Shown: in pieces, positions 25,537 through 64,000 of the stretch | Layout of the letters: each line of letters opens with the position of its first letter | Position numbering within the stretch: position 1 is the first letter of the stretch | Assembly: GCA_963833575.1 (NCBI GenBank) | Contig: CAWHXY010000008.1 | Span: forward strand, 96,001-160,000 | Length of the DNA stretch: 64,000 nt | Origin: Candidatus Bathyarchaeota archaeon | GTDB lineage: Archaea; Thermoproteota; Bathyarchaeia; Bathyarchaeales; Bathycorpusculaceae | Reading direction: 5' to 3' | Made by a program: the position numbers and the translations under genes | Notes under the pieces: generated by a model | What the model was told of the DNA's origin: nothing | What the model saw: only the letters and a program-made list of their open reading frames with translations | The model's database searches: none

Positions 25537-25614
25537 TGGCGGGCCCGACGGGAATTGAACCCGCGACCTACGGATTAAGAGTCCGCCGCTCTAGCCTGAC
25601 TGAGCCACGGGCCC
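25537..25614 (-). tRNA. tRNA-Lys (anticodon CTT), intronless, CCA encoded
   Basis: Reverse complement GGGCCCG TG GCTC AGTCAGGCTA GAGC G GCGGA CT CTT AA TCCGT AGGTC GCGGG TTCAATT CCCGT CGGGCCC G CCA folds into a cloverleaf. Confidence 0.97.
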
Positions 25615-59084: not shown

Positions 59085-60173
59085 TTACCTTGTAATTTTA
59101 GCCTGCCGCACCGTTTCTAAACAATCTTTAGCTTCACTATTATTTGCAAAATATCGCCTAACAGGCTCCAATATATCTGCAAGTTCGGTTGCAACGCCAT
59201 TCTTCAAGTCCATCGGATGAAGTTTACCTTCTGCGTAGACTGATTCGAGCTCTTGGAAGCTTTGAAGCTGTATGGTTCCTCCAAATTTTGCTGGACGCTC
59301 AATTGTGAAGACTGGTTTTTCTCGGAAGATAATGTATTTACAAATGTCAAGTATTGGATTAAATTTGATGGTTTTTTCCGGACAGAAAGCTTTTGCCATT
59401 TTCTGCTTTATTTCTTCAGGAGAATCATAGATGAAAATGCAAGTTTGAGGTTTGCTCTTTGACATTTTGGCTGAAGCTACTGCTTCTTTTTCTTGCCCTT
59501 CTGGGATTGGCCAAATTTTAGGTTTCTCTAAACCCTGAAGCAAATGGTGGTGAACACATGTGGGTTTCCAGCATCCTATTTTTTCACCTATCTCTCTTGC
59601 AACCATGTTTGCTTTTCGCTGGTCCATGCCTAACTGGCAAATTTTTACCTTCATATGAAAAATGTCTGCTACCTGCATTGGAGTGTAGAGGTAGTCTGAA
59701 ACGTAATGGGCCTCGGTTTCTTGTCTTCCCGCAATTTCTAATGTTCGGGTAGTCCGGGCTATGGTTAGGTTTTTTGCAATGATGACGGTTTTAGCCCAGT
59801 AGTCAATGTCTTTGTAGAGTTCATCTGAATAGATAAATTCAACTTTGTCGCCAGGGACCCCAAGAGCCAACCACGAGTGTCTAAAAAGGTCGGCTGCTTT
59901 GCGGATAAGAGGCAGGTCGCCACCAAGTTTGTTATTTAGCCATGCGTGCCATGTTGCCAAAAAAGCTTTGAAATGGATGCCTGCCTCAGCGAAGTCTTTC
60001 ATTTTATACGCACAAATAACGCCAGTTCCCAAATGCGCCAAACCAGAAGGTTCCCAACCATTATAGGCTACGGGATGCTCTTCTTTTTCAAAAAGGCTAC
60101 GCAAATCTTCTGGTGTAACAACTTCTTCCGTAGGCGGTCTGCAGATTAATTCAACTTTCTTTTCTATGTCCAA
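59085..60173 (-). CDS. tyrS: Tyrosine--tRNA ligase (archaeal type)
   Basis: AYNGWEPSGLAHLG, YTPMQVADI, GMDQRK, KMSKSKP, LHPMDLK. Confidence 0.96.
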   Translation of the reverse strand: MDIEKKVELICRPPTEEVVTPEDLRSLFEKEEHPVAYNGWEPSGLAHLGTGVICAYKMKDFAEAGIHFKAFLATWHAWLNNKLGGDLPLIRKAADLFRHSWLALGVPGDKVEFIYSDELYKDIDYWAKTVIIAKNLTIARTTRTLEIAGRQETEAHYVSDYLYTPMQVADIFHMKVKICQLGMDQRKANMVAREIGEKIGCWKPTCVHHHLLQGLEKPKIWPIPEGQEKEAVASAKMSKSKPQTCIFIYDSPEEIKQKMAKAFCPEKTIKFNPILDICKYIIFREKPVFTIERPAKFGGTIQLQSFQELESVYAEGKLHPMDLKNGVATELADILEPVRRYFANNSEAKDCLETVRQAKITR

Positions 60174-60461
60174 ATTGCACGCATCTTCCCTGTGTTTCCT
60201 ATTTCTAATGTAAGTGTGGAACTTAAAAATTTAGTACATCTTTATGTATTTAGCTTATCTTTGGTTCAAGTTTGCATTGTTTCCACTAGATAAATAAGAA
60301 ATGATGGTTGTGGGATATGACAAGAAGAACAACAACAGATGGAATTGCCATTTTTGAACAGTTTGTTTTCGATTGCTTTTTTGATTTAGGGTTTGACAAT
60401 GTATTCATTTGTTTTTTAGTTTAAATTAATTCACGTGAAATTTTATGTGTATTCATTAACC

Positions 60462-60473
60462 CGTGGGAAAAGG
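60462..60473. repeat. Short boundary motif A (CGTGGGAAAAGG), copy 1
   Basis: Lies 8 bp past the stop of the minus-strand gene at 60482; identical copy at 62508, one-mismatch copy at 61857. Confidence 0.7.
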
Positions 60474-60481
60474 TCATTGAC

Positions 60482-61255
60482 TTAGTTAGTGGTCTTTCGA
60501 TCCCTAAGCACCACAACAATAAACAAAACTGAAAGAAACAATGGCAAAATTGCTAACAAGGGAATCTCTGGAACGGTAGGCGTTGGAGTTAAGGTAGCTG
60601 TTGGAGTTAAGACAGGTGTTGATGATATTGTTGGGGTTGGATGAGGAGATGCAGTGATTGAAGTAGAAGTTGACCCGTTGGCTATGGTTATGGTTTGTGT
60701 GTTGCTCCAACCGCTTGATTGACCTGTAAAGTCTTCAGCACCATAAAGGGAATAAGGGGAAGGAACCGTTATCCAATACCCTATTGTTGCTTCTACTTGA
60801 AAGTCCACTTCACCACCAGCAGTAACTTGGGTCCAAATTGGAGCGTATGAACCATTATACAGGGTCACCTCATAGCTGATGACCGTGTATTCAGAATTAC
60901 TCGCAGGAACCCATGTGGAAATTGTATTCCATTCGTTGCCGTTGCTGAAATGTCCTTCTTCCTGAACGTTGTACGTCAAGCTAAGTGTGGTGCCGTTCTC
61001 AAGAGCGTTCGCATTAAAAGCTTGGTTTAGAATCACAATCTGCACCGTGTCGTTGGCATACGTGTGCGTTACGGTCGCTCCAGTATCTGTATTTGTTGTG
61101 TTCACACTGTAAGATGATTAAATGTATGTTACACTAAACTCTGGAGCCGATGGTGTGGGTATCGACTGAGCAAATGCGGGTTTAACGATTATAAGACTTG
61201 AGACAGCTAAGAGAACAATAAGAATTAATGAGAAACTCTTGCTGATACTGCCCAT
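60482..61255 (-). pseudogene. Surface protein with signal peptide, Thr/Pro linker and PEF/PEP-CTERM-like sorting signal; premature stop
   Basis: ATG 61255: MGSISKSFSLILIVLLAVSSLIIVKPAFAQSIPTPSAPEFSVTYI* (TAA 61118-61120); the same frame continues to PTVPEIPLLAILPLFLSVLFIVVVLRDRKTTN. Confidence 0.8.
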
Positions 61256-61354
61256 GTTTAGTATTAGGAAACTGTAGACGATAAAAGGCTGCTCGTAAAA
61301 CTCTCTTGACTGAAATTAGTCAAATTTTCTTGACTTGGAGTGTTTACGATTGGA

Positions 61355-61440
61355 GTTGAACTCAAACCCTCCGGCGATTTAGATGGGGAATCAGATTGAA
61401 CCCACACTCCTATGGAGACATCACATGCATTTCCCCTTTT
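61355..61440. repeat. ~87-bp structured repeat B, copy 1
   Basis: GTTGAACTCAAACCCTCC..GCGATTT..TGGGGA..TTGAACCC..TGGAGACATCAC..GCATTTCCC.TTTT; matches 63257-63344. Confidence 0.85.
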
Positions 61441-61446
61441 TTTGTT

Positions 61447-61689
61447 CTAAGAAGAGTTCTGTTTTGTTTTTTTGCTTCTTAGCAGTTTCATATAGAACTT
61501 TCCAAATAAAGAGATAACCAAAACAATCCAAACAGAACTGATTCCAAATCTAAACACACCAAATGTGATTATGGAACTAGACAATAGGAACCCCAAGAAT
61601 ATGTCAAACAAAATAGAACCCAAAACTGCAACTGAAACATACTTTAGAGTACTCAGCATTTTAGAACGGGATGTTACGGGATTTTCCAT
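61447..61689 (-). CDS. Small two-TM membrane protein
   Basis: 80 aa, two hydrophobic helices, basic tail. Confidence 0.55.
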   Translation of the reverse strand: MENPVTSRSKMLSTLKYVSVAVLGSILFDIFLGFLLSSSIITFGVFRFGISSVWIVLVISLFGKFYMKLLRSKKTKQNSS

Positions 61690-61856
61690 CGAAACAATCT
61701 CTAATACTTACTTCTTTACACCTTGCTTAAAAGATTTTAAAAATCTCTGCTTTTCGCTTTTTGGAATTTTTGAACTTTTCCCTTTATTGAAGGGCGCCGA
61801 GCTGACATTGCTTAAGGATTTTTTCCGTCAAGATGGTAGGAGACTATACGCTCAAC

Positions 61857-61868
61857 CGTGAGAAAAGG
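61857..61868. repeat. Short boundary motif A (CGTGAGAAAAGG), copy 2
   Basis: 11/12 match to the copies at 60462 and 62508; downstream of the 61916-62437 gene. Confidence 0.65.
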
Positions 61869-61915
61869 TTAGTCTATGGAGTTGCTGATTTTCTTCATTT
61901 TTCCAGCCGCCGATA

Positions 61916-62437
61916 TCACGTTGAAGTGAAAACTGGACGGTTAACATAGCGTAACCGCGAATGCAATGCTTCTACCCAATCACTCTTACTTACGTTAAAC
62001 GCTAGTTGGGCTTTGTGTATTGCTTTGCTTTCACTATCTGTTTCTGTTTCCGATGAGAAAATGAAGTCTGTCAGAAAACGTATGTTCGTGGATTCCTTCA
62101 GTGCCTCTAATTGTTTTAGCTCTGCAAACGTTAGGTCAAGTTTGAAAACAATTTGGGTTTTCACATTACTTTTAAGGCTGATGGTTGTTTTCTTAGGAAT
62201 TAGTTTGCCAAGATATAATTCTCCGTTGTCATTTCCCATGTAATTTATTTTAACGTCAAAATTGCTCAATTTCAGAATTTTTTGTGACGTAACAAAAATA
62301 TTAGACGTTGAGAACTTGCCTTCCAAATAGAAATCAAAAGCGAAATTAAATCCTGTACGAATGGCACCCCAATGTCTACTTACAGAAAGAAAAGCAATAT
62401 CTAGTAATACGTCCGAAATTTCAACATAAGCAGACAT
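61916..62437 (-). CDS. Hypothetical protein (possibly C-terminally truncated)
   Basis: 173-aa beta-rich ORF; no family recognised. Confidence 0.55.
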   Translation of the reverse strand: MSAYVEISDVLLDIAFLSVSRHWGAIRTGFNFAFDFYLEGKFSTSNIFVTSQKILKLSNFDVKINYMGNDNGELYLGKLIPKKTTISLKSNVKTQIVFKLDLTFAELKQLEALKESTNIRFLTDFIFSSETETDSESKAIHKAQLAFNVSKSDWVEALHSRLRYVNRPVFTST

Positions 62438-62507
62438 GAAATTTCATCATTCTAAATAGATTTTGTATTACTTAATAATTTTGCTATATATGGGAGGTAC
62501 ATCCAAT

Positions 62508-62519
62508 CGTGGGAAAAGG
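62508..62519. repeat. Short boundary motif A (CGTGGGAAAAGG), copy 3
   Basis: 22 bp past the stop at 62542. Confidence 0.7.
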
Positions 62520-62541
62520 GTCTGAGAGTAGAATTGGAAAG

Positions 62542-63190
62542 TTAGCTTCCAATATTAAGATTGATGGTTCTGTTGCCTGCTGGTGTGTAAACGTGGAAGT
62601 CGCCAGCGTAATATGTTGCGGGAAATTCGATTCCGTCGTTACCCCAAAAGTAATCTATTGTTACATAGTATGTGTGTTCATTTTCCAGATTAACAGAATA
62701 GACGTTATTGTTATAGGCTGATGGATTTGTTGAAAAAGTAAAAGTGCTTGTGGCATTGGTCTTTTCATCTGCAAATTTTATTTGGCGAACAATGTTTCCC
62801 ATTTTATTTACGAATGCCCTGCCAGAAACAATAACTTTAGCACTTAAAACCGAAACAACACAAAGCGTTCTGCATCAATCCTCGCCCTGCCGCTGTCACA
62901 ATGACAGAGTAGTTGCCTGTGGGAGTAGAAGCTGGAGTATTCATAGTTAGAAGGCTCGTAAAGTTGGATGTTCCCACTTCTGGCTCAAAGATTATGCTTT
63001 CATTTGCTTGTGTCATATTACTTAGATTGCTCACTTGACCTGTAAGGTCTGAAATTTGACTATTTAGAGTTGATATTTTGTTATTATAGTAAACTATCGT
63101 TCCAGCAATTGCACTTACAAAAAGTATAACAACTAACAAAAATGAGGCTATTATTTTCTTATTCATTCTTACCGAATAAATCAATATCAT
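62542..63190 (-). pseudogene. Membrane-anchored secreted protein split by a frameshift
   Basis: ORF 62837-63190 (N-terminal TM, coiled coil, TPTGNYSVIVTA) continues in another frame as VVSVLSAKVIVSGRAFVNK-MGNIVRQ... into ORF 62542-62802. Confidence 0.65.
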
Positions 63191-63256
63191 AAGTGCTTTT
63201 AGTTCTACTCATGGAACATACTGTTCCTTTCTTGGAACGCCGACAGGTAATTCAGG

Positions 63257-63344
63257 GTTGAACTCAAACCCTCCAGCGATTTTAATTGGGGACTGGCTTG
63301 AACCCTCCAGTCAGTGGAGACATCACTCCGCATTTCCCATTTTT
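63257..63344. repeat. ~87-bp structured repeat B, copy 2
   Basis: First 26 nt match copy 1 at 25 positions; shared TTGAACCC, TGGAGACATCAC and GCATTTCCC blocks. Confidence 0.85.
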
Positions 63345-63368
63345 CAGGACCTTTGTTCCAAGATTATG

Positions 63369-63830
63369 TCAAAGTTGCAGTCTCATGCTGTGTCCGGGTT
63401 TGAAACCAAAGGTTTCATACAGCGATTTTCCTGCCTCTGAAGCATCAAGATTTACTCTGTCGTAGCCATGAGCCCTACACCAAGCTATGCCAGTTTCGAC
63501 AATCAGTCGAGCTACACCTCTTCTCCTAAACTCCTTCTCCGTATACAAAGACATCAAATAAGGCACTTCCAAGAATCTGCTGATGGGCAAAGGCGGCTGT
63601 TCTCTAATCCAAATGCAACCACTACCTGCTACCTCCCCTTCCTCTGTTTTTGCGATGAAACCCACAAGTTTGTCCGATGACAACTTTTCCCTAATCCACT
63701 CCAGCGTACGCTCTTCTGTTCCGGTCGCGGACATTACCCGTTCCGGATGAATATCACACCACAGACTCAATCTGTGCTTAACCAGAATCTCAGTATCATC
63801 TAGAGTAGCATATTGAATGTTAAATCTCAT
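63369..63830 (-). CDS. GNAT family N-acetyltransferase
   Basis: YLMSLYTEKEFRRRGVA (motif A), LDASEAGKSLYETFGF. Confidence 0.92.
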   Translation of the reverse strand: MRFNIQYATLDDTEILVKHRLSLWCDIHPERVMSATGTEERTLEWIREKLSSDKLVGFIAKTEEGEVAGSGCIWIREQPPLPISRFLEVPYLMSLYTEKEFRRRGVARLIVETGIAWCRAHGYDRVNLDASEAGKSLYETFGFKPGHSMRLQL

Positions 63831-63964
63831 AGCTAGACTTTTCCCAAATTATTCTTGATGATGAAATGGACAAGTTGAGTTTAAATCTTGTTCAAAACTG
63901 AACTAATGATAGTTCGTTTAGATTCAAGTTTAAATCATTTCAGGGACCAAACAAGAGAAAAACA

Positions 63965-64000
63965 GGGGTTGATTTGAACCCCTAAGAGTGGAGATGTCAC
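63965..64000. repeat. Repeat B, partial/diverged copy 3 (cut by window end)
   Basis: GGGGTTGATTTGAACCCCTAAGAGTGGAGATGTCAC matches the GGGG..TTGAACCC..GTGGAGAYRTCAC half of copies 1 and 2. Confidence 0.65.

Follow-up and report, generated by a model that had tools for sequence, protein, structure and literature searches.

Cassette-like, repeat-bounded gene arrays in an accessory island beside tyrS of a Bathyarchaeia genome

The DNA analyzed here was a stretch of 64,000 nucleotides (nt), called the window, which corresponds to positions 96001-160000 of contig C8 in the genome under study (G000; 2.75 Mb, 8 contigs, 40% G+C). The subject is an array of five genes upstream of the tyrosyl-tRNA synthetase gene (tyrS), in which two short repeats, motif A and repeat B, recur past the 3' ends of the genes. 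The closest relatives of the TyrS protein were all titled Bathyarchaeota or Bathyarchaeia metagenome-assembled genomes (MAGs), and the source archaeon is a soil or peat member of the Bathyarchaeia, which rank with the most abundant archaea of soils, peat, and sediments and are almost uncultured. An earlier, sequence-only reading had described the five genes as unrelated and partly broken, each with an element past its 3' end, and had proposed an integron-analogous system; its description of the genes was borne out by the open reading frames (ORFs), by Pfam, and by intact paralogues. All five genes are on the minus strand, and A or B is located 6-46 nt past each stop codon. The copies of A at 60462, 61857, and 62508 and those of B at 61355 and 63257 were present where that reading had placed them. 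The features are listed below in window coordinates or, where a contig (C1-C8) is named, in coordinates of that contig of G000. L-numbers denote compared loci or contigs (L213-L217 are metagenome contigs), and G-numbers denote genomes.

59085..60173, minus strand: tyrS, tyrosyl-tRNA synthetase gene (ORF); conserved flank of the island
60227..60239: tyrS-side copy of a 13-nt direct repeat (ATGTACTAAATTT on the minus strand), within the tyrS promoter
60322..60427: second, unrelated dispersed repeat (32 BLAST hits in the genome)
60462..60473, plus strand: motif A, 7 nt beyond the stop of the surface-protein pseudogene; ACCTTTTCCCACGG in gene direction
60482..61255, minus strand: sorted surface-protein gene, broken into ORFs of 207 and 45 amino acids (60482-61105 and 61118-61255)
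61264..61340, minus strand: promoter region with TTGACT / AGTCAA / TTGACT repeats, common to at least 11 secreted-protein genes
61353..61447, plus strand: repeat B, full-length (72-87 bits); its oligo-T abuts the stop of the small membrane-protein gene (~6 nt)
61447..61689, minus strand: small membrane-protein gene, 80 amino acids (ORF)
61857..61868, plus strand: motif A, 46 nt beyond the stop of the hypothetical gene; downstream boundary of the hypothetical-gene module
61916..62437, minus strand: hypothetical gene, 173 amino acids, no Pfam family; cargo that recurs in L213-L217
62508..62519, plus strand: motif A, 21 nt beyond the stop of the secreted-protein pseudogene; upstream boundary of the hypothetical-gene module
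62542..63190, minus strand: anchored secreted-protein gene, broken into ORFs of 86 and 117 amino acids (62542-62802 and 62837-63190)
63255..63350, plus strand: repeat B, full-length; its oligo-T end is 25 nt from the GNAT stop codon
63369..63830, minus strand: GNAT acetyltransferase gene (Pfam)
63963..64000, plus strand: repeat B, half-length, extending to 64017 past the window; its oligo-T abuts a conserved 85 nt and a 92-amino-acid gene
C8 161282 (weak), 161816 (weak), and 164429 (window-equivalent 65282-68504): B copies beyond the window

The intact paralogue of the surface-protein pseudogene encodes 274 amino acids (C7:628703-629527), and that of the secreted-protein pseudogene encodes 202 (C8:24264-24872). 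The placement of B oligo-T beside the 3' end of a small membrane-protein gene was found in the same layout at five loci. Aligned without gaps, the B copies at 61355-61442 and 63257-63344 (88 nt each) are 73% identical. The further copy that had been noticed near the window's end proved to be a half-length one (63963-64017), and no other A or B was found in the window, as had been stated. The array does continue past the window, for ~4.5 kb, with B copies to C8:164504.

The tyrS loci of 80 relatives (tyrS identity 81-96%) were compared with that of G000. The ancestral order is gatD-elp3-orf-orf-(84-amino-acid gene)-tyrS; the 84-amino-acid gene was present in 32 of the 80 loci and was located no more than ~150 nt upstream of tyrS in 21. 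In G000, 8.3 kb lie between these two genes, and the insert is in the tyrS promoter. Both island ends carry the 13-nt direct repeat, the far copy being at ~C8 164.53 kb, after the stop of the 84-amino-acid gene; relatives have a single ATGTACTAAATTT between that gene and tyrS. The stretch listed above is the tyrS-proximal half of this 8.3-kb, strain-specific accessory island. In keeping with the sequence-only reading, gene order was not conserved among relatives: the island's gene set was found at none of the 80 tyrS loci, and single island proteins matched 0-4 of the 80. Other inserts, 0.6 to 7 kb long, occupy the same spot in relatives. The closest relative with an insert at tyrS was L062 (TyrS 96% identity over the best segment), and its island includes genes that sit in G000 at C7:364k, C4:1134k, C4:109k, and C8:20k, one of these places being within the second B array. 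As a side observation, the tyrS promoter has an insertion hot spot at its T-run; L040, L056, L065, and L041 carry other inserts there, with a common right end of ~100 nt that abuts TTTTAAGTTC.

Copies of B in G000 were gathered by iterated nhmmer searches (main cut-off E < 1e-3), and those in other genomes were sought with a sequence-only covariance model (E <= 0.01, 41 genomes). Mapped across G000, as the sequence-only reading had proposed, B was found in 27 copies, with about a dozen weaker matches. The copies form five clusters (C8:18-27.5 kb, C8:77-80 kb, C8:157-164.5 kb, C7:627.7-631.8 kb, and C6:74.8-82.3 kb) and six singletons. They are 55-90 nt in length, and about half are of a half form that consists of the 3' 55 nt alone. 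Among the 41 genomes, B was present in 30 (20 of 24 in the same genus, 9 of 16 in other families of the order), at 1-15 copies each. The core across genomes reads GGGG.GATTTGAACCC, followed by 4-8 variable nt, AGTGGAGAYRTCACCCGCATTTCCCC, and oligo-T; the oligo-T was present at the 3' end of nearly all of 93 copies.

Neighboring copies of B (<=6 kb apart; median spacing 1.3-1.5 kb) were co-oriented in 48 of 48 cases, with 19/19 in G000 and 29/29 in 18 loci of other genomes. The strand of the adjacent genes does not follow this uniformity. Of the ORFs flanking B (148 in all), 44 on the oligo-T side ran opposite to B and 30 in the same direction; on the 5' side, the counts were 37 and 37. On contig C7, all 7 copies are on the plus strand, across 570 kb. 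A separate observation concerns C8:25005-25296, where a conserved stretch of ~290 nt with a TATA-like box and a 34-amino-acid basic ORF follows the oligo-T of a B copy; this stretch recurred at 79-85% identity in at least 12 genomes, often in several copies per genome.

Motif A (CGTGRGAAAAGG) had three matches in the window, all on the plus strand. Shuffled sequences had a mean of 0.62 matches and reached three or more in 3 of 100 shuffles, a weak test because the motif was defined after being seen. In gene direction, the element is 14-30 nt long and reads ACCTTTTCCCACGG(TTGGGTGTA). Mapping of A across the genome gave five copies, namely the three in the window and a co-oriented pair at C7:9442 and C7:11743, 2.3 kb apart. 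Matches to its 14-mer in the genus are often clustered and co-oriented. Motif A aligns with the center of B on the same strand; the alignment is suggestive only, and A may be a shortened relative of the center of B. The two C7 copies lie in a stretch (C7:1-20230) made up of co-oriented small unknown ORFs and then a 475-amino-acid tyrosine recombinase. Its DUF7347 gene has 79% DNA identity to that of the island, and the stretch probably represents an integrated element with ties to the gene pool of the island.

Homology repeatedly breaks at the edges of A and B. At C7:628393, the small membrane-protein gene matches its copy on C6 with 100% identity over 353 nt from the first base after the oligo-T, and the B copies before this tract are clearly diverged, with many mismatches. 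For a Zn-ribbon (RPB9-like) gene shared by four genomes at ~87% identity, homology begins directly after the oligo-T of an upstream B that is itself diverged, extends across gene and promoter into the next B, and ends there; the outer flanks are unrelated. A 92-amino-acid gene with an 85-nt tail (the orf_4105 family) is located directly after the oligo-T of quite different B copies at 8 of 12 loci. The GNAT gene has an 88% identical counterpart in G013, where the match begins ~6 nt past the oligo-T position and no B is nearby. The hypothetical-gene module is bounded on both sides by A in G000, L213, and L214, between unrelated flanks, and the shared segment starts at one motif A and stops ~10 nt after the next. 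In L213, island modules (histone and hypothetical) adjoin the conserved flank of the other array of G000. Of 46 other genomes of the genus, 38 have matches, at scattered places, to segments of this second array (C8:18-27.5 kb).

The elements were compared with a number of known sequence classes. No consensus RNA structure was obtained for B with RNAalifold (11, 24, and 82 copies on both strands, with no more than 5 weak pairs), and a structured RNA was rejected for want of a consensus fold or covariation. As single-stranded DNA, six full-length copies folded on both strands with z-scores of -1.48 to +0.77 compared to 200 shuffles. The conservation of B in sequence and not in structure fits recognition by a protein. 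At the gathering thresholds of Rfam 15, the sole match in the window was tRNA-Lys, and the three weak hits at E <= 5 did not fall on A or B; tRNA-Lys(CTT) at 25537-25614 was likewise the only RNA gene found in the 64 kb by Rfam and ARAGORN. A tRNA-like T-arm was rejected: the loop motif is present in 59 of 93 copies, and the mean number of contiguous pairs was 1.69 compared to 1.69 with shuffled partners. The loop sequence of B varies in the manner of a T-loop; comparison with the 37 resident tRNAs gave T-loop-like matches of 10-12 nt at most, and ARAGORN reported none in B. A minus-strand open frame runs through two copies of B; since the copies differ by indels of 1-2 nt, which break the frame (by eye), B is not coding. 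C/D-box and H/ACA small RNAs were rejected by eye, as their boxes are not conserved in B.

Origins of replication were also considered. Origin recognition boxes (ORBs) are repeats adjacent to Orc1/Cdc6 genes and contain a TCCA..TGGA dyad; no such dyad occurred within ~3 kb of Orc1/Cdc6 at C4:778k and C6:250k, and the B clusters are located away from the Orc1/Cdc6 genes (C4:778k, C6:250k, and C4:270). A viral origin was rejected as well, with eight IMG/VR stretches matching an 18-mer of B and none of the matches being longer than 18-26 nt. No canonical attC site (RYYYAAC...GTTRRRY, 40-140 nt apart) was present at A or B, just as the sequence-only reading had held; the attC pattern matched twice per strand in 9 kb (L001:1-9000), always inside the GNAT gene and with weak folds. 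Terminal inverted repeats were absent from the sequences of the B copies, and the folds showed no end-to-end pairing. Filled and empty sites were sought at the aIF5A and C7:59.7-61.7 kb loci, which were rearranged or too diverged. A literature search, judged from abstracts, found no description of such elements in Bathyarchaeia.

The recombinase that had been predicted to lie outside the window was not found in a position linked to the arrays. The genome encodes five tyrosine recombinases (PF00589; C6:133344, C1:827, C2:778, C7:19451, and C4:4201), none of which is on C8 (203 kb) or beside a B cluster, and it holds no serine recombinase and no TnpB. Its sole Y1 (HUH) transposase (C7:653945-654303) has a best B-model score of 4.5 bits within 8 kb; a link to IS200/IS605 elements was rejected, as there are no B-like flanks at this gene. 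Three DDE fragments and one Cas1 are also present in the genome. No gene family recurs beside B, with 111 of the 148 neighboring ORFs being singletons, and a Pfam search of 103 ORFs at 12 B loci detected one DDE transposase. Three recombinase-bearing regions elsewhere are likely integrated elements. One, C4:159-4989, encodes an Orc1/Cdc6 paralogue, an AAA ATPase, and a tyrosine recombinase at the contig start; the other two recombinases (C1:827-1542 and C2:778-1704), also at contig starts, adjoin tRNA-Cys and tRNA-Gln genes.

Other sequences in and around the array recur in the genome. The TTGACT / AGTCAA promoter, with three boxes upstream of a TATA-like CCTTTTATC, precedes 11 or more genes for secreted or surface proteins and is therefore likely a regulon operator; it was located elsewhere at C7:625.6k, 629.55k, 630.55k, and 631.6k, C4:505.1k, C4:327.3k, and C6:7.9k. 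Repeated GGAAC / GTTCC boxes are found upstream of paralogous genes for membrane-anchored secreted proteins (window 63195-63250; C8:24205-24260; C6:76905-76960; C8:80170-80225). The second dispersed repeat, ~100-140 nt long, contains AGAACAACAACAG.TGGAATTGCCATTTTTGAAC...GGGTTGCTTTTTTGATTTAGGGTTTGA and is present on six contigs; it also adjoins tyrS in the closest relative (L062 9669-9820).

The cassette-like, repeat-bounded arrays are real. The reading that we prefer, at a probability of roughly 40%, is that A and B are boundary elements, polar and sequence-specific, and that an unlinked enzyme exchanges modules at them. Modules would be cut and pasted at these elements, with the crossover at the element's 3' edge, as in an integron cassette, and the gene for the enzyme would lie at another place in the genome. 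Transcription probably also stops at the oligo-T and T4 tracts, which would give each module a terminator of its own. This reading is favored because in four families the breaks fall at the outermost 3' edge of a conserved sequence of 55 nt, because orientation is uniform across an array whatever the cargo, and because the elements are conserved in sequence and not in structure. The integron-analogous system of the sequence-only reading stands in part, namely in its architecture, its variable locus, and the recurrence of modules with homology breaks at A or B; the site-specific recombination by an unlinked enzyme is what we infer from sequence comparison. A further formulation, which we regard as doubtful, is an undescribed gene-cassette system in the Bathyarchaeia of this order, with polar, non-palindromic sites at whose oligo-T edge cargo and site would be inserted together by an unlinked enzyme. 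Such a system, with a common core of A and B close to CC[C/A]GTGG[A/G]RA, would give rise to co-oriented arrays and carry single genes from one array or genome to another; it would work as an integron analogue without a folded attC or a linked IntI.

Several observations weigh against exchange at A and B. The lack of a recombinase beside any array is one. B was present at 1 of the 80 relatives' tyrS loci, and the islands there are without B in 79 of 80, so B is not needed for variability at that locus. One opposite-oriented pair of neighboring B copies (L196) was found after the count of 48/48 was made. Single copies of B also stand beside housekeeping genes; in G000 one lies 61 nt from aIF5A, and in G021 one lies between the genes for L13e and the NYN RNase. 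Motif A resembles a 3'-end signal, with an ORF of at least 60 amino acids ending 4-107 nt upstream in 9 of 12 copies; across the genus, its 14-mer (<=1 mismatch) matched ~128 times, compared to ~59 for the reversed control (hand-added totals). The occurrence of elements after ordinary genes, which the sequence-only reading had named as evidence against itself, was hence seen in part, in the single B at aIF5A and in the behavior of A. Copies of A are also found inside the integrase-bearing C7:1-20 kb element, which has the DUF7347 gene in common with the island. Homologues of the cargo occur elsewhere with no B nearby (L176-L179, L182-L184, and L193). Finally, the joint analyses concern five gene families that were picked for having hits and are not an unbiased sample.

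Some of these points are shared with the main rival, in which A and B are passive boundary elements, that is, conserved termination or 3'-end signals or sites for RNA-binding or termination factors, which would travel with genes of a common accessory or mobile-element pool. Gene order would be shuffled by ordinary illegitimate or homologous recombination between genes, and the coincidence of the breaks with the elements would be only apparent. The retention of oligo-T at the 3' end of B is what this rival would lead one to expect, as are the T4 of A and its position after co-directional ORFs, the location of B 27-74 nt after co-directional genes in six cases in G000, and the presence of A in the C7 element. 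The identical C7/C6 tract resembles gene conversion between paralogous loci, and the failure to find a linked recombinase is in accord as well. However, approximately half of the B copies point against both neighboring genes and therefore cannot terminate them; co-orientation in 48 of 48 cases regardless of gene strand is unexpected for gene-attached terminators, and the breaks in four families fall at the very edge of B and not anywhere in the spacer. Archaeal oligo-T terminators are not known to need a conserved sequence of 50 nt, which was also counted against this rival. We consider it rather unlikely. B could instead be a small non-autonomous mobile element of the MITE (miniature inverted-repeat transposable element), BOX, or REP kind, inserted between genes with a strand bias and not itself mobilizing the gene modules; the arrays would then come from a preference for accessory regions. 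The B downstream of aIF5A is unique to G000 (0 of 29 other aIF5A loci), B exists in full and half forms, cargo homologues occur without it, and its orientation matches the sign of the GC skew around it (+/-20 kb) at 9 of 11 independent loci; single-strand transposons are known to have a replication-strand bias. Against this stand the absence of terminal inverted repeats and hairpins, the fold z-scores given above, the sole HUH transposase without B-like flanks, and the lack of a transposase family that recurs near B. Moreover, one flank is conserved and the other unrelated, with no clean insertion having both flanks conserved. This explanation was judged improbable.

Two further explanations received still less weight. 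If B copies were small RNA genes of 55-90 nt, transcribed toward the oligo-T and acting perhaps as antisense or 3'-untranslated-region regulators, with arrays arising by duplication, then an oligo-T terminator at one end of a sequence conserved across the order would be accounted for. So would the five copies that converge on the 3' ends of small membrane-protein genes, in a manner reminiscent of type I toxin-antitoxin pairs. The absence of a consensus secondary structure, of covariation, of an Rfam match, and (by eye) of a conserved promoter upstream of B renders this very unlikely, and the synteny breaks at oligo-T would be left unexplained. A canonical integron cassette array without an integrase (CALIN) is refuted by its defining features, and its probability is close to nil. 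The likeness lies in clustered, co-oriented sites <4 kb apart, single-gene modules, and GNAT-type cargo; the attC pattern confined to the GNAT gene, folds of B that are no better than those of shuffled sequences, and the lack of an IntI-like gene on the contig contradict it. Integrons and CALINs have been reported in archaeal MAGs; the archaeal integrons of that report use canonical attC sites, and an array is recognized by at least two co-oriented sites <4 kb apart (PMC9668308). B copies are spaced and oriented in that way.

As the comparisons show, short gene modules move between loci and genomes, and their joints are at two conserved, unstructured, co-oriented elements. We know of no described mechanism for accessory-gene turnover in the Bathyarchaeia. 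If an enzyme does act on A and B, they would be cassette recombination sites of a new class, and archaea would have a new route of gene capture. If not, they would still form a family of archaeal terminator or boundary elements with unusually conserved sequence, which could serve to mark accessory islands and to annotate transcript ends in this lineage.

Among known systems, archaeal oligo-T terminators resemble B in that it ends in T5-8 after a second T-tract, and they resemble A in its T4 and its position just past co-directional genes; the difference is that a conserved stretch of 14-55 nt is common to unrelated genes here, and half of the B copies face away from genes that they could terminate. 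The REP/BIME, BOX, ERIC, and Correia elements are likewise short, non-coding, multicopy, and intergenic, and lie near gene 3' ends. A role in termination or at mRNA ends is likely, B is modular (a first half and a second half), and elements of these families can act as recombination hot spots. They differ from A and B in being palindromic or inverted-ended and in having no array-wide co-orientation, and REP elements are tied to RAYT transposases, whereas the only Y1 transposase of G000 is unrelated to B. The dif modules of Acinetobacter plasmids are Xer-dependent and are bounded by pdif sites, which are 28-bp dyads (11-6-11) in alternating orientation. As in the present arrays, small gene modules recur there in different contexts with short conserved bounds and a recombinase encoded elsewhere; A and B, in contrast, have no dyads and are co-oriented.

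Integrons and CALINs, including chromosomal super-integrons with their sequence-conserved attC repeats (VCR type), differ from the present arrays in that A and B have no R''/R' boxes, imperfect palindrome, or single-strand fold, and no IntI is located beside the arrays. The cargo here, moreover, occurs in either orientation with its own promoters, and the element is also found singly beside housekeeping genes. In an integron cassette, nearly all of attC is to one side of the crossover. The arrays resemble integrons in their tandem single-gene modules of unrelated function with one co-oriented site each, in the similarity of the sites within a genome, and in a junction at one edge of the site. 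The cargo of GNAT, small membrane, and unknown proteins is also alike, and in both cases array content differs between close relatives.

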